Source of the DNA: Acidobacteriota bacterium
GTDB lineage: Bacteria > Acidobacteriota > UBA890 > WLXD01
Assembly (NCBI GenBank): GCA_963666055.2
Contig: CAXWPH010000007.1
Location: forward strand, 96,001-160,000
Direction: 5' to 3'
Length of the DNA: 64,000 nt
The notes under the pieces were generated by a model that was not told the origin of the DNA, made no database searches, and saw nothing but the letters and a program-made list of their open reading frames with translations. Position 1 is the stretch's first letter, and each line of letters begins with the position of its first letter. Positions 13,212-46,855 of this stretch are shown here, piece after piece. The translations under genes and the position numbers were made by a program.

Positions 13212-13976
13212 CTAGGGCTCCGCGTCCGGGTTGAGACCAAGCGTAGCGGCTAGCTCATCGGCACGCGTTTTGGCGAACTGCGCGTATACGGAGCCTGCGT
13301 GACCGTCGACGATCCGCTGATAGGCGAGCATCGCCTCCTGCGTCTGTCCGGCGGCCTCATGTGCGCGCGCCTTGGCAGCGAGCGCTTCCTCGATGGGGAA
13401 CCCTAGCGGCGGATCGCTGATTGTTTGATCGAATATCTCGATAGCATCAGCGTAGCGCTCCTGCTGCGCGAACAGTCCGCCGAGCCGAAGGAGCGACGCT
13501 GCGCGTGGTAGCGGTGCCACCGCCTCAGCGCCGTCCCGCAGACTCGCTTCGGCGGCCTCCAGGCGACCGAGGCGCGCCAGGCTGGTCCCCAGGTAGAACG
13601 ACGCGGCACGACCCGAGGGGTACGTGCCATAGGCATCGATAACCGCCTGCAGAGGCGGGATCGCCGCCTCGAGCTTCGCTTCTTCCGACTCGTACGCTGG
13701 CCCGGCCGGAGAGCTGGCGGGTATGGTGGTCGGGGCACCGGCGATCTGGGCGTTGAACGCCTGCAACGCTACCGCGAGCATTGCGGCAGCGTTCTGCTCC
13801 TGCCGGGTTCGATACGAGCGCACACCAGCCAGGACCGACAGTCCAGCCACGACGACAAGAAGCACCAGTCCGATGCTCTTCCGCCGCTGCATGACCCAAG
13901 AGACCGCGGCCGTGGCTCCACGCTGGAACTCATCGGACTTCTTGAGATCTTTACGGACGACATGATCTGCGGACAT
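13212..13976 (-). CDS. Membrane-anchored tetratricopeptide repeat protein (YfgM-like)
   Basis: RKDLK-x2-DEF N-terminus, one TM and TPR-like helices. Confidence 0.8.
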   Translation of the reverse strand: MSADHVVRKDLKKSDEFQRGATAAVSWVMQRRKSIGLVLLVVVAGLSVLAGVRSYRTRQEQNAAAMLAVALQAFNAQIAGAPTTIPASSPAGPAYESEEAKLEAAIPPLQAVIDAYGTYPSGRAASFYLGTSLARLGRLEAAEASLRDGAEAVAPLPRAASLLRLGGLFAQQERYADAIEIFDQTISDPPLGFPIEEALAAKARAHEAAGQTQEAMLAYQRIVDGHAGSVYAQFAKTRADELAATLGLNPDAEP

Positions 13977-37004: not shown

Positions 37005-38513
37005 ATGAGCAACCAAGACAAAGGTGGCGTGGATGGTGCAGAGACCAAGCTGAGCCGGCGCACCTTCGCCAAGACATCGGTCGCCGCGGGTACCGCTGCC
37101 GTCACGCTGCCGAAGACGCTGCTCGGCGCCCCGTCGGAGGCTGCGGCGACCAAAGCAACCTATGGTCGTGTGAAGCGCGTCGAGCTGCCGAACGACGGCA
37201 TCGGCTACGGTGGCACGGGCGCGCCCCTCTTGAAGGGCCCGCTACCGAAGCGGCAGAGCGTCAACGGCTGGAAGGAAGGCACGACGATCCCGGCCGAGTA
37301 CTACCTGGAAGCGAAGCACTTCGACGCCGACGAGGCGTTCGTGGCGGAGAACTTCTGGCAATACACCGACCAGGCGAGCCGGATTCCCAACCCCGGGGAC
37401 TTCTACGTGTTCGAGTTCGGGCGCTCCGAGTCGATCCTGATCGTGCGCGGCCAGGACAACGAGATCCGCGGCTTCTACAACGTTTGTCGCCACCGCGGCT
37501 CGCGTCTGTGTCGCCACGATGCGGACTCGATTCCCTCGGACCCGCGTCTGTCCGTCAAGCAGCTTGGCCAGACGGGCAACTCTCCGGTGTTCCGGTGTCC
37601 GTACCACGCGTGGACCTATGACACCGAGGGCAGCCTCATCTATGCCTATGGCATGCAGGATGATTTCGACCCGGCCGACAACGGCCTGCTTCCGTGCCAC
37701 ACTCGGGTGGCGGCAGGGCAGGTGTTCGTAAACCTGTCGAAATCCGATACGCCGCCGGATTTCGACGCCGCCGTGAGTCGCCTGCGCGGTATTGCCGACA
37801 AGTACAGCCTCGCCGATCTGAAGGTCGGGGCACGCGAGTACTACCCGATCAACGCCAACTGGAAGCTGGCGCTGGAGAACTTCAAGGAGTGCTACCACTG
37901 CGGGCCGGCCCACACGCCGCTGGTGACCACCCACAACTGGAGCAACGAGGTCACCGCAGAGCAACGCAAGGAGCGTGCCGCGGCGGTCGCGGCGTGGGTT
38001 CCGGAGAAGGCATGGCGCGACCGAGGTCCCGCCGCGGGCATGGGCAGCCAGGGCATGGGAGACGATGAGCCGGAATACAGCTTCGGCGGGATGCTCAATC
38101 CCGGCTTCGTGACCGGCTCGATCGACGGCAAGGCAACGTCGATCCTCTTGCCGAACATCGATGGCTGGAACAACGAGACCAACGTGGTCACGACCGCCGA
38201 GTCGACCGGCTACTGGCAGTGCTACGACGACCACGTCGCCGTGGCGCGGTTCACGCCCCGGACGGAGAAGTTCACCGACTGCGAGATTGTCTGGCTCGTG
38301 CACCCGGATGCTCGCGAGGGCATCGACTTCGATCCCGACAACGTCAAGGCGCTCTGGCACGTGACGATCCAGGAGGACATCTGGATCACCGCCAACAACC
38401 ACGCCGGCATCGAGTCCGCGGCCTACACCGCAGGTCGATACTCCAGCCACGAGGGCGGCTGCTCCGGTTTCATCAGCCGGTACATGAAGGAGATCGTCAC
38501 GGCTGGGGACTAG
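37005..38513 (+). CDS. Rieske non-heme iron oxygenase alpha subunit with twin-arginine signal
   Basis: SRRTFAK; Rieske CRHRG...CPYHAW; NWKLALENFKECYHC-x3-H; QED iron ligand. Confidence 0.92.
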   Translation: MSNQDKGGVDGAETKLSRRTFAKTSVAAGTAAVTLPKTLLGAPSEAAATKATYGRVKRVELPNDGIGYGGTGAPLLKGPLPKRQSVNGWKEGTTIPAEYYLEAKHFDADEAFVAENFWQYTDQASRIPNPGDFYVFEFGRSESILIVRGQDNEIRGFYNVCRHRGSRLCRHDADSIPSDPRLSVKQLGQTGNSPVFRCPYHAWTYDTEGSLIYAYGMQDDFDPADNGLLPCHTRVAAGQVFVNLSKSDTPPDFDAAVSRLRGIADKYSLADLKVGAREYYPINANWKLALENFKECYHCGPAHTPLVTTHNWSNEVTAEQRKERAAAVAAWVPEKAWRDRGPAAGMGSQGMGDDEPEYSFGGMLNPGFVTGSIDGKATSILLPNIDGWNNETNVVTTAESTGYWQCYDDHVAVARFTPRTEKFTDCEIVWLVHPDAREGIDFDPDNVKALWHVTIQEDIWITANNHAGIESAAYTAGRYSSHEGGCSGFISRYMKEIVTAGD

Positions 38514-38553
38514 GGCGTCCGAATCGTGTCGTGACGGTGTCGGGGGCAGCCAG

Positions 38554-38700
38554 GTGCTGCTGACCACGGAGGGCAGCAACGAAGTCCCCGTTTGGTCGCC
38601 CGATGGAGAGTGGGTCTTCTTCAGGTCGAATCGGGGTGGCAATAACGACATCTGGAAGCGGCGGGCTGACCGGAGTCTGGAAGCCGAGCTAGTAGCCCTG
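38554..38700 (+). pseudogene. Fragment of a TolB-like/PD40 repeat protein
   Basis: PVWSPDGEWVFFRSNRGGNNDIW: a single PD40 repeat with no recognisable rest of the gene. Confidence 0.6.
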
Positions 38701-39073
38701 CAAGTTGTGGATGTTGAACAGATGAAGCCCAAACGGAGGCGATTCGGCCGACTAGAGCTGCTGATCGCCAATCAGCATGACCCCCTGGAAGCGACCGATA
38801 TCAAAGGCGATTCCGCGGCCGGGGTCAGTCGGGGTTCGCGGAGAGATAACGCAAACGACGCCGTCCGCAGCCTCCGAACCGAACGGGGTCGAAACGGCCG
38901 TTTCGGCACCGGTGGTTTTGGAACCCCCGGGCACGGCCCTCTCGCCTCATAAGGGGGGGTACCCCCACTGGCGGTGGGCTCGATGTCGGCAAAACGCCGA
39001 CATCGACAGGCCCGTTTGCAGCTCATCGGTTCATACCGCGACTGTTGGCACGTCGTAGGGTCCGCTCACGCTC

Positions 39074-39400
39074 ATGCCCTTGTTCATGGGGATGGGCATG
39101 GGTGTCAACTGGAACCTAGAGGCCGCCGGAACCATGCTGCCCAGCCTCATGGGTCATCTGGTCTACGGCGCAATCCTGGGCGCTGTTTACGCCTGGATGG
39201 GCACAGGACAACGTGCCGATGGGAGTTCTGATTCCGCTGACTTCGAGCCCCTGGATAGCGGGGGTCCGATTCCGTTGGAGAACGAAGATCAAGCACCGCC
39301 GGAGGAAGCCGCCTCGAAGAACGGCGAGGGCGCGAAAACTGGTAATGGGGCCGAGCGACCGAGCGGGCCGAGAACGGCGACGAATAACATCCTGGACTAG
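39074..39400 (+). pseudogene. C-terminal fragment of a membrane protein
   Basis: LMPLFMGM...SLMGHLVYGAILGAVY; upstream frames are broken. Confidence 0.5.
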
Positions 39401-39543
39401 GTAGCCAGCGAGGCTCCGGAGGCTGCGGCGCGTTCCCGCGGGAAGGCGGAACGTGGGATGAGACTAGACCGGCTCCATTATCAAGGAGTGGAACCGGCGC
39501 CCTTACTGCTACGATGTCGTCAGCCCCCTAGCAGCCCGACGGA

Positions 39544-39801
39544 GTGCCAGTGCCCCGCGCCCGTTTGAACCGCGTTCGTGCTGAGCAACGAGCCTTTGAT
39601 TCGCAGATTGAGGGTCTGCTCGACGAGCATGCCGGCGAGTTCGTGGTCTTCCACGACGAGCAGCCTGTAGCCTTCTATCCGACCCATGCGGAAGCCTACG
39701 CTGCCGCGCTCAAAGTTTATGGCTCTGAGGGTGTCTTCCTCGTATCTCAGGTGAAGAAGCGCTCCCCGCGCTTGTCACAGCGGCTGCGCGCCCACACGTA
39801 G
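39544..39801 (+). CDS. Small DUF5678-like protein
   Basis: LLDEHAGEFVVFHDEQPV...EAY...YG pattern typical of these small proteins. Confidence 0.6.
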   Translation: MPVPRARLNRVRAEQRAFDSQIEGLLDEHAGEFVVFHDEQPVAFYPTHAEAYAAALKVYGSEGVFLVSQVKKRSPRLSQRLRAHT

Positions 39802-39974
39802 GCCCGCGGCAGACGCGGGTGGCGGTTCGGCAGATCCGCATAGTGCCCGATGCTCGATCTGATCTGCCTCCCCAACCTCCCTCGCAGATCGCCCGGCGCT
39901 CTCCCGTGGTGAGAGCCGACCTATTCCGCTAGGCTGAGCAGCCGCGCTGAGCACCGCCGACGGCCGGACGAGCT

Positions 39975-40762
39975 TGGCCGTCGTTGACCGGCTACCCGCA
40001 TGTTCCCCCTCAACCCCTGGACACCACGGCCGGGAAAGGCCACAGTGCGCCTGCTACGGTAGGTCCCCACCTCCAAAGCGCTCGGGCCGAAGCGTTTCTG
40101 CTTCGGCCCGAACTGTTTCTGGTGATCCCACCAACTGCTCTCGAGCTCGGTACGCGTTCCGGTCCTCCTGGTGGTGGCCTCCTAGTGCCCGCCGCTGCCG
40201 CCCGGAGATAGCTCGGGGAAAACCACCCCAAAGGCGGCTGTCTCCCGTGGTGAGAGCCGATCTATTCCGGAGGTCCCTCCCGACGTAGGGAGAGTAGACC
40301 TGCTCCTGGACCCTCTCGCAGCCCGGGACTCCTAATGCTCCCGGTACCCCCCTTGCGTCGGTCGGTTGCTTCGCAAAGACTGCCCGCACGGTCGTCATTC
40401 CTCACAGGAGGGGTGCCCCCCATCGGAGCGCAGACCGAGAATCTGCAGTGATGCCAGGAGCCTGGCCGTCGTTGACCGGCTACCCGCATGTTCCCCCTCA
40501 ACCCCTGGACGCCACGGCCGGGAAAGGCCATAGTGCGCCTGCTGAGGGATGGTGGTCCCCACCTCCCAAGCATCGGGCCGAGGCGTTTTCTGCTTCGGCC
40601 CGAACTGTTTCTGGTGATCCCACCAACTGCTCTCGAGCTCGGTACGCCTTCCGGTCCTCCTGGTGGTAGCCTCCTAGTGCCCGCCGCTGCCGCCCGGAGA
40701 TAGCTCGGGGAAAACCACCCCAAAGGCGGCTGCTCTCCCGTGGTGAGAGCCGATCTATTCCG
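39975..40762. repeat. Two diverged ~300-bp non-coding direct repeats (39975-40269 and 40463-40762), each ending in the 36-bp repeat
   Basis: Near-identical by eye, with several substitutions and one short replaced segment; multiple hairpins. Confidence 0.92.
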
Positions 40763-40865
40763 CTAGGCTGTGCAGCCTCTGCGGAACTGTACCCCGGAGC
40801 AATCCGGTGAGAAGCTGCCGGGTCCGCGTGTGGCTGGCGCCGAGCGATCTCGACAGGAGGTAGCG

Positions 40866-41501
40866 ATGGCACTCATTGCGTGTTCGGAGTGCGGGCAACA
40901 GCTATCGGACGGAGCGGCGGCGTGCCCGCACTGCGGGTGCCCCGTCGGTGCGCAGCACCCAGCTTCCAAGCCCGCAGCGTCAGCGCCGGTCGTGGAGCCG
41001 CCCGTAGCGGCTACACGCGTAGCGCCGAGGATGTCGCTGCCGAAAGGAAGAAAGCAACCAACACCGACCTGGGATTTCTGGTCGTCATACATACTGTTCA
41101 CGGTGGGATTAATCTTCTACGTTGGCTCTTCTCAGCCGAGCACCGCCGCAGACGATGCCGCCGCAGACGATGCCGCCGCAGACGATACCGTCGCAGACAA
41201 TGCCGCCGCAGACAATGCCGCCGGAGCTGTTGCTGCTGTAGCTGAGTATATCGCCGGTAATTCCCTCGGCATCCGCAGTGAGCATCTAGCTGCACGGCGA
41301 AACCCTGACGGCGAGGGCACCTTCGTGTACGTCCAGCGTTCGGGAGCGCCGACGATCAGGTCCACGGTCTGGCTCGTTCTCGATAGCTACCCGTATCCGC
41401 TTAACGGACCTGCGAAGAAAGTGACCCCATCGCTGCCCTGGCCACGCGAGGTGCCGGAGCATACCTGGTCAAGGACGGGCCTCCAGCTGCGACCCGGGTG
41501 A
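40866..41501 (+). CDS. Zinc-ribbon domain membrane protein
   Basis: AGGAGG RBS; MALIACSECG...ACPHCG zinc ribbon; TM; (AADDA)n linker. Confidence 0.8.
   Translation: MALIACSECGQQLSDGAAACPHCGCPVGAQHPASKPAASAPVVEPPVAATRVAPRMSLPKGRKQPTPTWDFWSSYILFTVGLIFYVGSSQPSTAADDAAADDAAADDTVADNAAADNAAGAVAAVAEYIAGNSLGIRSEHLAARRNPDGEGTFVYVQRSGAPTIRSTVWLVLDSYPYPLNGPAKKVTPSLPWPREVPEHTWSRTGLQLRPG
41143..41223 (+). repeat. 15-bp coding tandem repeat, about 5 copies
   Basis: ccgccgcagacgatg units encoding AADDA/AADNA. Confidence 0.85.
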
Positions 41502-41803
41502 GAGGCCGCTGCAGCACCACCCCCCGCCCCCTCGCCTACCCCCGCTGCCAGTTCGGCAACTACCTTGGCGAGCTGATCGACGCGCACCCGACCGCGAGGG
41601 AGACGCTAGCCGAGCGCATCGGAGTGTCCGCGGGGAACCTCAGCAACTACCGCCACGGCCGGTTTCTCCCGCCGGACCGCAAAGCCATCGGAGTGATCGC
41701 TCGAGTCCTTGCACCGAGCAGGGCAAAGCAGGCGGCTGTCCGCGCGGAGCTCACGCGCCGCTGGATCGCCGACCTGCTTGATGCGGCTGCTCTCCCGTGG
41801 TGA
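41498..41803 (+). CDS. XRE-type HTH protein
   Basis: ETLAERIGVSAGNLSNYRHGRFLP helix-turn-helix; TGA stop falls inside the fourth 36-bp repeat. Confidence 0.7.
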   Translation: MRGRCSTTPRPLAYPRCQFGNYLGELIDAHPTARETLAERIGVSAGNLSNYRHGRFLPPDRKAIGVIARVLAPSRAKQAAVRAELTRRWIADLLDAAALPW

Positions 41804-41819
41804 GAGCCGATCTATTCCG

Positions 41820-42023
41820 CTAGGACAGACACCGTGAACACCCATTGCGCTTGATGACGTTGCGGATGGCATCGACCGCGTACCAGAGCCGGCCACAGTT
41901 CTCGCAGATCGTCCACAAGTAGACGCGGCCGGGGTGCTGCTTCTGCACGTAGACGATTCGGCCGGGAGCCAGGCGCATTATCGGCGCTGCCTGCGGATCC
42001 CGCGCAATCTGCCACTTGTCCAC
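41820..42023 (-). CDS. Small putative zinc-binding protein
   Basis: CENC...CSRC; TAG stop supplied by the CTAG of the fourth repeat. Confidence 0.45.
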   Translation of the reverse strand: MDKWQIARDPQAAPIMRLAPGRIVYVQKQHPGRVYLWTICENCGRLWYAVDAIRNVIKRNGCSRCLS

Positions 42024-42554
42024 AACCCCCTAATTGTCGCACACCCGCCACGGGATACCCGGACGACTCGCCTAGCTCCGTCCTTCGAGCGCACAACGGA
42101 GGCTCGTGTCGCGGCACTATCCGGCTGGGGCGCTGTGGGTCTAGGATGGGTGCAAGCCCCTTGGCGCGGGACGAGACATAGAAGAGCGGCCGCTGCCGGG
42201 CAGCCGCGCGCTAGCTATCGATATGCCTGGCCGTAGACCACAGCGGCGCCAGCGTCTCGCGTTGAGGGGTGGGGCCGCGCATGCTCGCTCGAGGATGTAG
42301 CCCACCCCGAGCTCGCGTCGCTCCCCCTGGTCCCCCTCCGCTGTCGGCGCATCCCTGCGTTGCTTTCACAAGCAATCGACCGACAGAGGGGTCGGGGGTG
42401 GGGGAGGTCTAGCGGAACCTAGCGAGCGAGAGGGCGTACCCAACGCACATGTTGTTAGAAAATCCCGAGAAATACGGGCTAGGGGAAAGCTGCTTTGCAG
42501 CACAGCCAACCTCCGATAAAAAGCACTCTAATGAGCTTTTTGTAGCTAATTGCA

Positions 42555-42691
42555 CTACGATACGGGACACCGTGCGGATGGCAGAGGCGCCCTACTACCG
42601 CGAGTCGATCATTACCTACGACAACACCGGCACCGGGTCCGAGGACTACCGGGCACTGGCAATCGAATTTGAACGGAGGGCAAGGAGATGA
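42555..42691 (+). pseudogene. parA: ParA/Soj family ATPase, C-terminal remnant
   Basis: TIRDTVRMAEAP...IITYD...GSEDYRALAIE matches the ParA C-terminus; Walker motifs missing. Confidence 0.75.
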
Positions 42692-43086
42692 CGGCACGCC
42701 GTGTCGGGCTTCAACCACACGCTGTCGACGAAGCTGAGCTAAGGGCCGCAGAGAGAGTCATCGCCGCCACCAAGAAGAAGGCGAGCACCAGAGCCGCGAC
42801 CCATGAAGAGGGCGAGGCACCCCCGCAGACGCCGTACTCGTTCCGACTGACCCCGGCGACCGTCGACAGCGTTCGCGATGCCGTGGTCTACCTCGAGACG
42901 TTGACGAAGGCTTCCGCGGCTGGGCTGACCGACAAGAAAGCACCGAAGAAAGCGTTGGGCATGAGCGAGTTTGTGGACGCTGCTCTCGTCGACTACGTGA
43001 ACCGGATGGCGAAGCGCTACAACGGGGGCGAAGCGTTCCCGGCTCGATCTGCTAACCCGAAGCCGGGTCGCCGAGTCGGACAATGA
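42688..43086 (+). CDS. Putative plasmid partition/centromere-binding protein
   Basis: ATGA overlap with the parA remnant; SFRL...VRDAV...SEFVDAAL...YNGG-x2-FP-x-R ribbon-helix-helix-like pattern. Confidence 0.6.
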   Translation: MTARRVGLQPHAVDEAELRAAERVIAATKKKASTRAATHEEGEAPPQTPYSFRLTPATVDSVRDAVVYLETLTKASAAGLTDKKAPKKALGMSEFVDAALVDYVNRMAKRYNGGEAFPARSANPKPGRRVGQ

Positions 43087-43563
43087 GCGACCAGGACGTT
43101 AGCGAGTTGGTCGCCAGGGTAGGGCAAGCTAGAGCGCGACAACAAGCGGTTGAAGCTAGCCGGCGGTGGCGCGGTGGCGGTGCTGCTCGCCGTTGCGCTG
43201 GTCGGTGCGGTGATGCCGCAGGAGATTCCCGACGCAATCGACGCCAGGATATTTCGCGTGTTCGATGAGACCGGAAAGATGCGCGCTGCGTTGTCCGCTG
43301 ATGGCATCTGGTTCGACGATGAGAGCGGGACGCGGCGAGCCTCGATGGACACCGACGGCATCCGCTACACCGACGAGAACGGCACTACGCGCAGCACGGT
43401 GGGCGCGTTTGGCTTCGACTACTTCGACGAGAACGGCAAGACGCGGGCTCAACTTGGCCGCACCGTGATCGTCACGACATCAACCGGAGCAGAGACTACC
43501 TACCCGGCAACGATGGTCCTGTACGACGCCGAGTTCAAGGTCATCTGGCAGGCACCTCGGTAA
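43083..43563 (+). pseudogene. Paralog of the 18254-18724 protein, with a +1 frameshift near 43120-43125
   Basis: MSDQDVSELVARVG, frame change, KLERDNKRLKL-TM-QEIPDAIDARIFRV...; same repeats and a WQAPR end. Confidence 0.7.
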
Positions 43564-43633
43564 GAAAAGCTATAAGCGAGACGACAGCGTACCGACGCGC
43601 AAATAAGCCAACGAACGATCCCCTTGAGGAACG

Positions 43634-43735
43634 ATGACCATGCGACGCCCTGATATCGTCGAGATCACACCCGTACTGATATTGATAACGCCGCTCGTAC
43701 TGCTCGCCGGACTGCTGCTACGGCACCTCGTATGA
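43634..43735 (+). CDS. 33-aa hydrophobic peptide
   Basis: GAGGA RBS; MTMRRPDIVEITPVLILITPLVLLAGLLLRHLV*. Confidence 0.35.
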   Translation: MTMRRPDIVEITPVLILITPLVLLAGLLLRHLV

Positions 43736-44069
43736 GGCTTCGTTTCTAGCAGGCCGTATGCGCTTTCGAACCACGGGCTGTGCGCAGCGGGGGAATACGT
43801 GCCATCGCCTGACGCGCTGCATGTGTTGCCAGGACCGAACGGGGCCGCAACGCGAGCTCGGGGTGGGCTACATCCTCGAGCTCGCATGCGAGACCCCTCA
43901 ACGCGAGGCGCTCTTCGCCGCTGTGGTTCTCAGGTCGCCAGCGGCGGTGGACCGGCACCGTCAGCGTCCCGCGCCAAGGGGCAACACCATCCTAGACCCC
44001 CCCCCCCCCCCCCCGCACACCGACCAGGTAGTGCCATAGCGAACAGCGTAGCGCTGGCTCACGCTACGT

Positions 44070-44245
44070 CAAATCCGACACCTATAAAAAGGACCTGAGG
44101 CCACAGCTACCGAGCGGCGTAGCGCTGGGCACAACCTTCCAAATTCGACACCCTTAAAAAGGGGGCTCAGTAGCGAAGGGAACCTTTTTCTCTGCTCCGT
44201 CTGCAGCACCCTCACGCTTTGTCAAATTTGACGACATTAAAAAGG
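44070..44245. repeat. Three imperfect 23-bp direct repeats
   Basis: caaatccgacacctataaaaagg (44070), caaattcgacacccttaaaaagg (44140) and caaatttgacgacattaaaaagg (44223). Confidence 0.75.
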
Positions 44246-44361
44246 AGCTCAGCGCGCCCTTCGCTTTGAAGCCTTTACTTCTCAGTGGCTTGGCGGGGTG
44301 CGTCGGTGTGCTGGTGGAATAGCAAATTGCAACTCGCGGGGGGGGGGGGGGGGGGGGGGGG

Positions 44362-45166
44362 GGCACTGTCAAGTTAACTGCGCGACGCTCGGATTTGGGC
44401 AAGTTCTGGCCCTGGAGTTGGGTTCCTTCAGGCGGTGACTACCGCACTCCAGGTCCCAAGAGCACTAGTGCGAAGTACCCGGTAGTCCGCGGATCGTAAT
44501 CGGTGCCGGCTCAGGTTGAAAAGATTCCGGACGACACCGTGTACGGACAGAAACCGTTGAGCTTGAGCCGCAGACTTGAACCTCCGCATCTGTCGTTCGC
44601 GCTGCCGAGTCGGCTGATGTGAGAGCTCTGCACGGTTGTTCGCATAGCGCTTGGTGACGTGCTCCACCGTGGGCATCACACTCCGGTGCGCGGCCCCGTA
44701 GCTTCTTAGCTTGTCGGTGGTCAACCATCGGGGTTCGCTCCCCTCCCCTTTCAGCAACTTGCGGAAGAATCGCGTGGCGGCGTGAGCGTTGCGACGTCGT
44801 TGGACCAGAATGTCGATCACGTCACCGTCTTGATCGACCGCCCGCCACAGATAGTGGCGCTCCCCGCGAATGCTGACGAAGACCTCGTCCAAGAACCAGG
44901 TGTCTCCGAGCCGACCTTGCCGCCGACGAAGCCTCCGGGCGTACTCCAGGCCGAACTTCGTGCACCAGTACCGGATGGCCTCGTACGAGACGGTGACACC
45001 TCGCTTCGCCAGGAGATCTTCGACGTCTCGGAGGCTCAAGCCAAACCGGTGATACAGCCAAACGGCGTGGCTGATGATCTCGGGCGGGAAGCGGTGCCGA
45101 CGGTAGCTCAGCCGATCATTGCTCATAGGCGAACGGTGCCAGGCAGTACGTTAACTTGACAGTGCC
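44362..45166 (-). mobile_element. IS6 family insertion sequence (805 bp)
   Basis: 17-bp terminal inverted repeats ggcactgtcaagttaac / gttaacttgacagtgcc around a DDE transposase; no target duplication. Confidence 0.95.
44428..45126 (-). CDS. IS6 family transposase
   Basis: RHRFPPEII, LSLRDVEDLL, WFLDE, YLWRAVD, TDKL and NNRAE motifs. Confidence 0.96.
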   Translation of the reverse strand: MSNDRLSYRRHRFPPEIISHAVWLYHRFGLSLRDVEDLLAKRGVTVSYEAIRYWCTKFGLEYARRLRRRQGRLGDTWFLDEVFVSIRGERHYLWRAVDQDGDVIDILVQRRRNAHAATRFFRKLLKGEGSEPRWLTTDKLRSYGAAHRSVMPTVEHVTKRYANNRAELSHQPTRQRERQMRRFKSAAQAQRFLSVHGVVRNLFNLSRHRLRSADYRVLRTSALGTWSAVVTA

Positions 45167-45175
45167 TGAGTCCGC

Positions 45176-46855
45176 TCAGTGCTTAGTCAGCTTGCGGTAC
45201 TTGATGCGGTGCGGCTGATCGGCCTCGCGACCTTTGCGGCGCTTGTAGTCGGCCTCGTAATCCTGGTAGTTGCCGGCGAACCACTCCACGTGGCTGTCGC
45301 CCTCGAAGGCGAGAATGTGGGTGGCAACGCGGTCGAGAAACCAGCGGTCGTGGCTGATGATCACCGCACAGCCGGCGAAATCGAGCAGGGCTTCCTCGAG
45401 AGCGCGCAGGGTATCGACGTCGAGGTCGTTGGTGGGCTCATCCAGCAGCACCACGTTGGCGGCCGACTTCAGCACCCGGGCCAAGTGAACCCTGTTGCGC
45501 TCACCGCCCGAGAGCATCGACACCTTCTTTTGCTGATCACCACCCTTGAAGTTGAAGCTCGCCACATAGGCTCGGGAGTTCACCTCTCGCTTGCCGAGGG
45601 TGACGTAATCCCGACCCTCCGAGATGGCCTCCCAGACGTTCTGATCTGGCTGCAGCACATCGCGGGACTGATCGACGTAGCCGAACACCGCGGTCTCGCC
45701 CAAGCGTAGCTTTCCGGCGTCGGGCTCCTCGCTGCCGGTGATCATGCGAAAAAGCGTGGTCTTTCCGGCACCGTTGGGTCCCACGACGCCGACGATCCCG
45801 GCCGGCGGCAGCTGGAAGGAGAGGTCATCGATCAGCAGCCGGTCGCCGAAGCCCTTCGATAGATGATCGGCCTCGATCACCACGTCGCCGAGGCGCGGGC
45901 CCGGCGGGATAAAGATCTCCACCGTCTCGGGAATGCGCTCATTGCCCTCCTGGCGCAGCTTCTCGTAGGCGCTCAGCCGCGCCTTGCCCTTGGCCTGGCG
46001 AGCGCGGGGCGCCATGCGCACCCACTCGAGCTCGCGGCGCAAGGTGCGCTCGTGGGCCCGGTTCTTCCTCTGCTCCTGCGCCATCCGCAGCTGCTTCTGC
46101 TCCAGCCAGGAGGAGTAGTTGCCCTCCCACGGGATACCGGCACCGCGATCGAGCTCGAGAATCCAGCCGGCGACGTTGTCGAGAAAGTACCGGTCGTGGG
46201 TGATGGCAACCACCGATCCCGGGTAGTCCTTGAGATGGCGTTCGAGCCAGGCGACCGACTCGGCATCTAGGTGATTGGTGGGCTCGTCGAGCAACAGCAG
46301 ATCGGGCTTCTGCAACAGCAGCCGGCAGAGGGCGACGCGGCGGATCTCGCCTCCCGACAGCGTGGTGACGTCGGCGTCACCGGGTGGGCAGCGGAGCGCA
46401 TCCATGGCGATCTCGAGGGTCGATTCGAGGTCCCAGCCGTTGACCGCCTCGATCTTGTCCTGCAGCTTGCCCTGCTCGTCGAGCAGCTTGGTCATCTCGT
46501 CGGGATCGAGGTCGGGATCGGCGAACTTGTCGCTCACCTCGTTGAAGCGATCCAGCAAACCCTTGACGTCGGCCATCCCCTCCATGACGTTCTCGAGGAC
46601 GGTCTTGGAGGGATCCAGCTGTGGCTCCTGTGGCAGGAGCCCGACCGTGGCCTTCTTGTCGAGAAACGCCTGACCGTCGAAATCGGTCTCGACGCCCGCC
46701 ATGATGCGCAGCAGGGTCGACTTGCCGGCGCCGTTGTGACCGAGCACGCCGATCTTGGCGCCCCAGAAGAACGACAGCCAGATTCCCTTGAGAATCTCGC
46801 GATTGGGCGGCACCCGCTTCTTGAGGTCCTGCATGGTGAAGATGATGTCGGGCAT
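45176..46855 (-). CDS. ettA: Energy-dependent translational throttle protein (ABC-F)
   Basis: GAKIGVLGHNGAGKST, two ABC domains, EGNYSSWLEQK and HRIKYRKL C-terminus. Confidence 0.96.
   Translation of the reverse strand: MPDIIFTMQDLKKRVPPNREILKGIWLSFFWGAKIGVLGHNGAGKSTLLRIMAGVETDFDGQAFLDKKATVGLLPQEPQLDPSKTVLENVMEGMADVKGLLDRFNEVSDKFADPDLDPDEMTKLLDEQGKLQDKIEAVNGWDLESTLEIAMDALRCPPGDADVTTLSGGEIRRVALCRLLLQKPDLLLLDEPTNHLDAESVAWLERHLKDYPGSVVAITHDRYFLDNVAGWILELDRGAGIPWEGNYSSWLEQKQLRMAQEQRKNRAHERTLRRELEWVRMAPRARQAKGKARLSAYEKLRQEGNERIPETVEIFIPPGPRLGDVVIEADHLSKGFGDRLLIDDLSFQLPPAGIVGVVGPNGAGKTTLFRMITGSEEPDAGKLRLGETAVFGYVDQSRDVLQPDQNVWEAISEGRDYVTLGKREVNSRAYVASFNFKGGDQQKKVSMLSGGERNRVHLARVLKSAANVVLLDEPTNDLDVDTLRALEEALLDFAGCAVIISHDRWFLDRVATHILAFEGDSHVEWFAGNYQDYEADYKRRKGREADQPHRIKYRKLTKH

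Follow-up and report, generated by a model that had tools for sequence, protein, structure and literature searches.

The PeSL (promoter-early stem-loop) cassettes of the T4-type phages RB49/phi1, PST and nt-1 are described as a σ70-like promoter with a stem-loop overlapping its -35 or -10 element, and they mediate shuffling (PMC2839356, PMC4122927). A transcription terminator role of the stem-loop and the formation of mini-circles also count among the PeSL traits. At the mosaic junctions of temperate phages, short conserved boundary sequences lie at gene borders (PMC3029335). Here, we analyzed a 64,000-nt stretch of the Acidobacteriota assembly GCA_963666055.2 (contig CAXWPH010000007.1, positions 96,001 to 160,000; G000:C7:96001-160000 in our numbering, hereafter the window), which contains four direct copies of a ~70-nt hairpin repeat. 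We propose, with a probability of roughly 0.6, that this repeat is a portable promoter sitting at the exchange points of small gene modules in patchwork islands, and that the shuffling is due to short-homology recombination.

The likeness to the PeSLs lies in an intergenic repeat of ~70-100 bp in hypervariable regions, in the small orphan genes that follow it and are swapped there, and in σ70-like -35 and -10 elements inside it, which are recognized here by sequence only, from a genome-trained model and the layout of host kinase promoters. In contrast to the PeSLs, our repeat lies in a bacterial chromosome, over 8 and 6-7 loci, and not in a lytic phage genome; it is GC-rich, and its boxes deviate from the consensus and follow the layout of a host promoter; its upstream arm is C-rich without an AT-rich tract; its 3' end carries no fixed Shine-Dalgarno sequence with a start codon; and its hairpins lack U tracts, leaving a terminator function unsupported. 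Because the terminator pattern, the built-in ribosome site, the AT-rich tract and the phage location are all missing, we do not class the repeat as a PeSL. With the temperate-phage boundaries, it shares short sequences at gene borders where general recombination joins unrelated modules; the difference is that one linker is here itself a predicted promoter and that the modules lie in chromosomal islands of two species.

The repeat appears to be a chromosomal variant of a known promoter-linker design, and no description of such a repeat in Acidobacteriota was found in the literature searched, the coverage of which leaves out most subscription papers. If our reading is right, the PeSL design, in which a promoter doubles as a recombination linker, would be at work in bacterial chromosomes, and a kit of small orphan genes would be spread over many loci and two species with a promoter that copies the host layout. 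Genome scans would also need some caution, in that hairpin repeats between single genes, even those with internal stops, may be promoters or truncation scars and not attC or HUH sites.

Integron attC sites carry RYYYAAC and GTTRRRY cores and form one long imperfect hairpin. The repeat resembles them as a series of direct repeats between co-oriented single-gene modules that are reassorted, and it differs in lacking these cores, a single long hairpin and a precise crossover. P4-like phage satellites combine an early promoter with a structured leader. Here, too, a ~270-nt structured region containing a terminator-like hairpin comes after a putative promoter, and a third copy of this unit (C13:62234-62526) precedes a DnaB-like gene by ~570 nt and also precedes a tyrosine integrase at tRNA-Sec; the difference is that the unit is seen only in G000, the genome of the window, and has no Rfam family at E < 0.5 (nothing better than E 0.59 in 38500-45200).

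A dispersed repeat family in two species

The original prediction, made from the letters of the window, described a local array of four 36-bp hairpin repeats about 340, 490 and 1060 bp apart. The four direct copies are indeed present, starting at 39898, 40239, 40732 and 41789 (spacing 341, 493 and 1057), and a search with a 31-mer at ≤3 mismatches gave 4 matches in the window against 0.00 expected, with 0 of 100 shuffles. The 36-mer itself is found in three of the four, while copy 2 lacks one left-arm base and stops at TATTCCG without CTAGG. In the repeat unit, which is ~70 nt long, a C-rich arm leads into hairpin 1 and a near-invariant core, behind which come hairpin 2 and a tail; the unit is genome-wide instead of being a local array. 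It had been considered that the repeat might occur only here, with a fixed gene order in relatives; we found the copies dispersed and their flanks reassorted. The spacing, with gene-sized contents, is also unlike the regular 25-75-nt spacers of CRISPR arrays.

In G000 we found 18 matches at 8 loci, 15 of which are independent because C6:1-8030 repeats C13:58156-66188. The congener G002 contains 11 copies at 6-7 loci, bringing the two genomes to 26, and one more copy occurs in a metagenome contig (L031); the repeat was not found in 59 other relatives. A sequence-only model (R1), built from 30 of 35 known copies and with 150 candidates scored per genome, finds the repeat only in G000 and G002 at E 0.001. 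The family, which appears to be uncatalogued, is lineage-restricted and narrow, with 2 of the 26 genomes of the class scanned. Five single marginal matches at E 0.005-0.05 were put down to chance. Exact patterns of the core and of the structured unit's hairpin each gave 0 matches in a 185,579-species collection, from which near relatives may be absent; the core also gave 0 matches in viral contigs and 0 in 50,697 phage records, and plasmids yielded only 21-27-nt chance matches. Eight divergent relatives (type B; 1 in G000, 7 in G002) share the arm and TTRTTCCG with the repeat (type A) and not the rest, having other hairpin sequences and no CTAGG. The homology between the two types ends at TTCCG, as does copy 2.

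Promoter-like anatomy of the conserved core

The original prediction overlooked the promoter anatomy of the conserved core. A two-box promoter model trained on 894 divergent upstream regions of the genome picks TGGTGA, a 17-nt spacer and TAGGCT in 24 of the 27 copies with scores of 7.5-7.9, which lie at the 90th percentile of real upstream regions (7.8) and above the 95th percentile of shuffled ones (6.7); a score of at least 7.85 is reached at 819 of 11.45 million sites (top 0.007%). The -35 TGG is kept in 27/27 copies and the -10 TAnnnT in 24/27, and in the 23 untruncated copies TGGTG is free of substitutions, as are the T, the A and the last T of the -10 element. Hairpin 1 is intact in 19 of the 27 copies and broken in the other 8, and DNA folding gave a z of -2.87 for copy 3 and 0.82 for copy 1.

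The same arrangement is found in front of host genes. A promoter-like motif, CTCCCGT(G/T)GA...TAGGCT with a variable spacer, is carried by 39 of 50 gene starts of a host kinase family, mostly 39 nt before the ATG, and it has the same CCCGTGG-N20-TAGGCT layout and box spacing as the repeat core. In its exact form this layout occurs 26 times in G000, never inside a called gene, whereas spacings of 17-19 and 21-23 give 0 matches. The kinase form of the motif also occurs in G003 and G004, neither of which has the repeat.

The DNA behind the copies points in the same direction. A ribosome site with an ATG lies ≤200 nt downstream of 10 of the 23 intact copies, compared with 128 of 1080 island control points (12%) and with 1 of 23 on the divergent side. 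A gene start common to another island place stands behind 18 of 23 intact copies as opposed to 0 of 23 on the divergent side, and none of the three copies without the -10 element has either feature. Where a following gene start is recognizable, the module is always oriented toward it, the starts lying 29-190 nt behind the -10 with varied leaders. The repeat core is likely a portable housekeeping-type (σ70) promoter with two overlapping hairpins. No terminator-like site was found at any of the four window copies.

The host genes with this motif form an expanded, often fragmentary Ser/Thr kinase-PD40 family (50 starts in G000), one copy of which lies in the window at ~34364. Homology between the kinase copies starts just 5' of the -35 box, with 260 pairs sharing the downstream side only and 1 pair sharing both, and kinase fragments adjoin many islands.

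Exchange of flanks and its possible causes

It had been suggested that the copies delimit exchangeable modules, and this holds. The pair counts leave out the G002 segmental duplicate L039 and the C6 copies that repeat C13. Among 26 copies, 7 pairs share a long flank upstream only, 13 downstream only and 0 on both sides; these 20 pairs are mutually dependent and amount to about 13 links. Alignments of ≥150 nt run through a copy in 0/26 cases (both directions counted) compared with 62% at control anchors, and anchors inside genes share both flanks in 53/55 and 10/10 pairs. Other short linkers of the islands show a similar pattern, with both flanks shared in 5/66 pairs for a second linker at gene starts and in 5/22 for a third, and repeat zones account for only 25 of the 296 island breakpoints (1.7-fold, p 0.006). 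The joins are ragged. On the right they retain 0-32 nt; on the left, where they gather just outside the -35 region or at poly-C, they retain 4-32 nt. In the window, the structured unit is joined to copies 2 and 3 via CGGCTG microhomology, and the window joins show microhomology with uncut partners. The repeat module is a swap point, though an imprecise one, and at least three short linkers act as swap points in these islands.

The second linker is 22 nt long, begins with ATG (e.g. L001:9774-9795) and heads or trails many unrelated genes; it has 12 matches in G000, 10 in G002 and 0 in G001, G003 and G004.

Two details of the original prediction look different in this light. The stop codons of the helix-turn-helix (HTH) gene and of the convergent CxxC gene both fall inside copy 4, as had been noticed, because copy 4 cuts the two genes. 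Uncut homologues of both run on: those of the HTH gene occur in C13, C14, C2 and G002 (117 aa in C13 vs 101 aa in the window), and the CxxC protein ends with ...CLYPGGRKRDQTAA in the uncut C15 homologue vs ...CLS in the window. Since both genes are truncated, the stops are by-products of truncation and the integron-like argument drawn from them fails. The second detail is a 9-mer reported exactly 57 nt upstream of copies 1-3, which is present at offsets of 57, 56 and 57. It precedes 3 of 27 copies, all in the window, copies 2 and 3 being one duplication, and in the G002 homologue of the copy-1 flank 2 of its 9 bases differ. The separate hairpin seen in that flank (gatctgc/gcagatc) exists in the window, and its pairing is broken in the G002 homologue. 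A same-offset 9-mer occurs in 2 of 343 copy pairs without a shared 14-mer, the window pair being one of the two; it is rare, but no feature of the repeat family.

The copies sit in islands assembled from a common kit of 200-500-bp modules in varying order, which includes the HTH gene, the CxxC gene, the start of the zinc-ribbon gene and an orphan gene. This orphan gene has 11 matches in G000, 5 in G002 and 0 in 24 other genomes, and the commonest cargo protein has 68 homologues and matches only unnamed Atlas clusters, which suggest no function, with no relative of its gene in viral contigs. At the lpdA-GST locus of both G000 and G002, a repeat island with different cargo in the two lies within a 9-bp duplication of the start of the GST gene, and G003 and G004 are empty there, with a ~40-bp gap. 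A tyrosine integrase and DnaB or replication genes are found next to 3 of the 8 G000 loci (C13, C15:2.12 Mb and C2), and the islands are probably decayed cargo regions of integrative phage-like elements. The window island, which extends from a kinase/PD40 fragment to an IS6 transposase, contains no integrase, and Rfam reported only tRNA-Sec at three other island loci.

We suspect that σ70 polymerase would bind TGGTGA-17-TAGGCT and start ~7 nt downstream. New DNA would be joined before the -35 or behind the -10 by illegitimate, microhomology-guided events, and the joins that spare both boxes would be those retained. General recombination or gene conversion within the shared 45-70 nt would then give upstream and downstream sequences new partners, from copy to copy, from island to island and from one species to the other, and each incoming gene would thus arrive behind a promoter. 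In the window, copy 1 would drive structured unit 1, likely as a leader or small RNA of its predicted promoter, copy 3 would drive the zinc-ribbon gene, and copies 2 and 4 would be broken by-products. The module may have originated as an early promoter of an integrative phage-like element, because its tail coincides with the 5' end of the structured unit, which in C13 stands before the DnaB-like gene and which carries a terminator-like hairpin.

Several observations weigh against this proposal. The promoter score is partly circular, since the model was seeded with the σ70 pattern TTG/TAnnnT and its training set may include kinase promoters. A strict E. coli consensus scan gave 0 promoters in 39000-44500, a codon-score test for open reading frames (ORFs) was unenriched (12/23 vs 205/507 control points, 40%), and the type-B relatives lack TAnnnT in register and score 3.2-6.2. 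Conservation of the spacer may reflect recent copying rather than selection; hairpin covariation is no better than in slid controls, and alifold does not recover the hairpin. On the side of recombination, a shared stretch of 45-70 nt is short by RecA standards, and neither G000 nor G002 yielded a RecT, ERF or Rad52-type annealing protein (in the five genus genomes searched, G000 to G004, ERF and Rad52 were found in 0/5 and RecT only in G004, Sak4 not having been searched). In each of the 7 pairs with a common upstream flank, the ~10 nt directly before hairpin 1 differ, which exceeds the expectation from general recombination in an identical core; these differences could come from slippage in a GC dinucleotide run or from imprecise enzymatic joining. 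Finally, 4 of the 8 loci, including the window, are without integrase or att-like duplication in the examined DNA, and we found no intact parent element that contains the module.

The variable zone 5' of hairpin 1 in these 7/7 pairs would also suit a dedicated enzyme. The module would then be the site of an unrecognized recombinase or HUH nickase encoded elsewhere, in an integron-like system whose cassettes have their own promoter, with the cut at TATTCCG/C or in that zone; a fixed recombination or end site of this kind was what the original prediction had favored. That 0/20 flank-sharing pairs share both flanks, that copy 2 and the type-A/type-B homology both stop at TTCCG, and that IS110 transposases are limited to the two carrier genomes would fit as well. 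We take the hairpin followed after 12 nt by CTAG to be like HUH substrates, and TATTCCG presumably recalls IncP-type nick sites. However, the joins are ragged on both sides, the linker at gene starts is an equally strong swap point within error (5/66), and the slid controls match the hairpin covariation.

The enzyme searches speak against it, too, and no consistently linked recombinase was found at the repeat loci. In the five genomes, Y1 transposases (IS200/IS605, REP-RAYT) were found in 0/5 (the positive control was detected in 6/14), as were the MOBP relaxase (PF03432) and TrwC (PF08751), whose positive controls were detected, other MOB and Rep families not having been searched; Y2 transposases (IS91/Helitron-like) were also found in 0/5, with a silent positive control. 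Reverse transcriptase was found only in G002 and not in G000, and large serine recombinases occur in all five genomes, away from the repeat loci. The IS110 transposases have 1 match in G000 and 38 in G002; four of these 39 loci were compared and gave no alignment to the repeat at E < 0.5, and no IS110 element lies next to the repeat loci whose genes were called. The integron integrase IntI scores above cut-off in G002, is broken in G000 on C10 and also occurs in G004, which has no repeat, and it lies near no repeat locus. In agreement with the original prediction, an attC pattern scan found no RYYYAAC/GTTRRRY cores in 38500-45200, yet it detects canonical attC beside the G002 integron integrase. 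All things considered, we regard a dedicated enzyme as unlikely.

Some side observations and rejected candidates belong here. G002 shows a burst of near-identical 1.4-kb IS110 copies (38 matches; e.g. L133) with a long non-coding region after the transposase, and an integron with canonical attC cassettes at L129 that is unrelated to the repeat; at the matching place in G000 (G000:C10:48400-50740), the integrase is shortened and has an internal stop. A non-canonical attC in which GCTAGGC would serve as R' agrees neither with the spacing symmetry nor with type B, and hidden minus-strand coding was rejected since the type-B relatives bring stops or indels into the frame. Ribozyme, group II intron, sigma-54, ECF and LexA box, judged by eye against their consensuses, gave no fit.

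It is likewise unlikely that the module is inert debris, a former phage promoter or a recently copied stretch that is kept alike by gene conversion and serves as homology only. Much of the island cargo is fragmentary or frameshifted, the -10 is lost in 3/27 copies, two copies precede a mutated start and the family is confined to two species, all of which debris would explain. Against it, the -10 is left intact by 24 of 27 right joins and the left joins gather just outside the -35 region, a pattern expected from selection on a promoter, and full-length host-type genes (GST, YHYH and sensor kinase) stand behind repeat copies.

Chromosomal genes could also be shuffled free of integrases by an unrecognized enzyme that cuts or exchanges just 5' of the promoter -35 with short variable joins, which we consider a rather doubtful idea; equally doubtful is its corollary that promoter-headed modules, namely the island cargo and possibly the 50-copy kinase family starting at the same CTCCCGTGG, were amplified and reassorted genome-wide. 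We find it quite improbable that the module is one end of a non-autonomous transposon (a miniature inverted-repeat transposable element or an insertion sequence remnant) carrying neighboring DNA along. The family is dispersed, lineage-restricted and contains CTAG, as such an end might; but the array copies are all direct and show neither an inverted partner end nor a target duplication, the ends are ragged, copy 3 matches none of the many miniature inverted-repeat elements of the genome and the type-B relatives have no CTAGG. That the mosaics are assembly artefacts of long-read metagenome genomes, which the 8-kb C6/C13 overlap, the homopolymer runs and the frameshifts might suggest, is very improbable, because copies of the modules diverge by 5-30%, the second species shows the same joins of module to repeat and the repeat module is also present in an independent contig.

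Features of the window island and minor observations

Table 1 Features of the window island (positions within the window) and locations of the divergent type-B relatives
Feature	Position	Strand	Remarks
DUF5678-like small ORF, cargo module upstream of copy 1	39544..39801	+	Pfam PF18929 E 6.5e-4, below cut-off
C-rich upstream arm of the repeat module	39876..39897	+	also in divergent type-B relatives
Copy 1, full module	39898..39963	+	hairpin 1, shortened hairpin 2, conserved tail; putative promoter
Copy 1, predicted boxes	-35 TGGTGA 39907-39912; -10 TAGGCT 39930-39935	+	17-nt spacer
Structured non-coding unit 1	39951..40237	+	terminator-like hairpin 40082-40111
Copy 2, truncated	40239..40269	+	-35 kept, -10 lost
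Unique ~190-bp piece	40270..40457	+	between copy 2 and unit 2
Structured non-coding unit 2	40458..40730	+	94% identity to unit 1; terminator-like hairpin 40573-40603
Copy 3	40732..40785	+	predicted -35 40741-40746, -10 40764-40769; hairpin 2 40759-40785
Zinc-ribbon membrane protein gene	40866..41501	+	GGAGG ribosome site 40856-40860; domain match below cut-off
HTH gene	41498..41803	+	cut at 41785, closed by TGA (41801-41803) in copy 4; match below cut-off
Copy 4, truncated after CTAGG	41789..41824	+	-10 lost
Convergent CxxC gene	41820..42023	-	3' end cut off, closed by TAG (41820-41822) of copy 4
Type-B relatives	L007:7156-7252; L034:18622-18718; L036:11951-12047, 13777-13873
Type-B relatives	L037:8665-8761; L038:10984-11080; L050:1497-1593, 2585-2681

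The DUF5678-like, zinc-ribbon and HTH genes reported around the copies are present, with all matches below the Pfam cut-offs, and the duplication of the structured non-coding unit is confirmed (~270 nt; 39970-40269 vs 40458-40762). The region 39052-39897, which includes the DUF5678-like ORF, is 94.9% identical to one G002 island, and 39481-39958 is 86.7% identical to another. The unique piece between copy 2 and unit 2 has no homologue in G000 or in the examined G002 loci, with a single marginal match of 33 nt. The zinc-ribbon gene lies 96 nt behind the copy-3 -10 box, and its start is also found behind repeat copies at C14, C15 and in G002. It contains a 15-bp tandem repeat (DDAAA) at 41127-41241. 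The CxxC gene has 7 other homologous stretches in G000.

In addition to the islands, G000 contains satellite-like elements with integrase, helicase/primase and terminase genes at C6:278203-286602, C6:322649-328863, C14:493316-500624 and C2:351157-358264, among the listed ORFs of which no capsid gene was recognized. A tRNA-Sec lies at L001:16091-16188 between two tyrosine integrase elements, and ARAGORN calls a tRNA-Pyl at G000 C5:65608 (prediction only).

Downstream in the window, long imperfect inverted repeats at 42110-42327 and 43841-44009 flank a ParA-like fragment, an RHH-like gene and a membrane ORF, and pieces of these inverted repeats recur in other islands. An 18-nt C run and a 26-nt G run at 43997-44363 surround three copies of a 23-nt motif (44070, 44140 and 44223), which are possibly iterons or integrase arm sites. 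The island is closed by the IS6-family transposase at 44428-45126, next to ettA.

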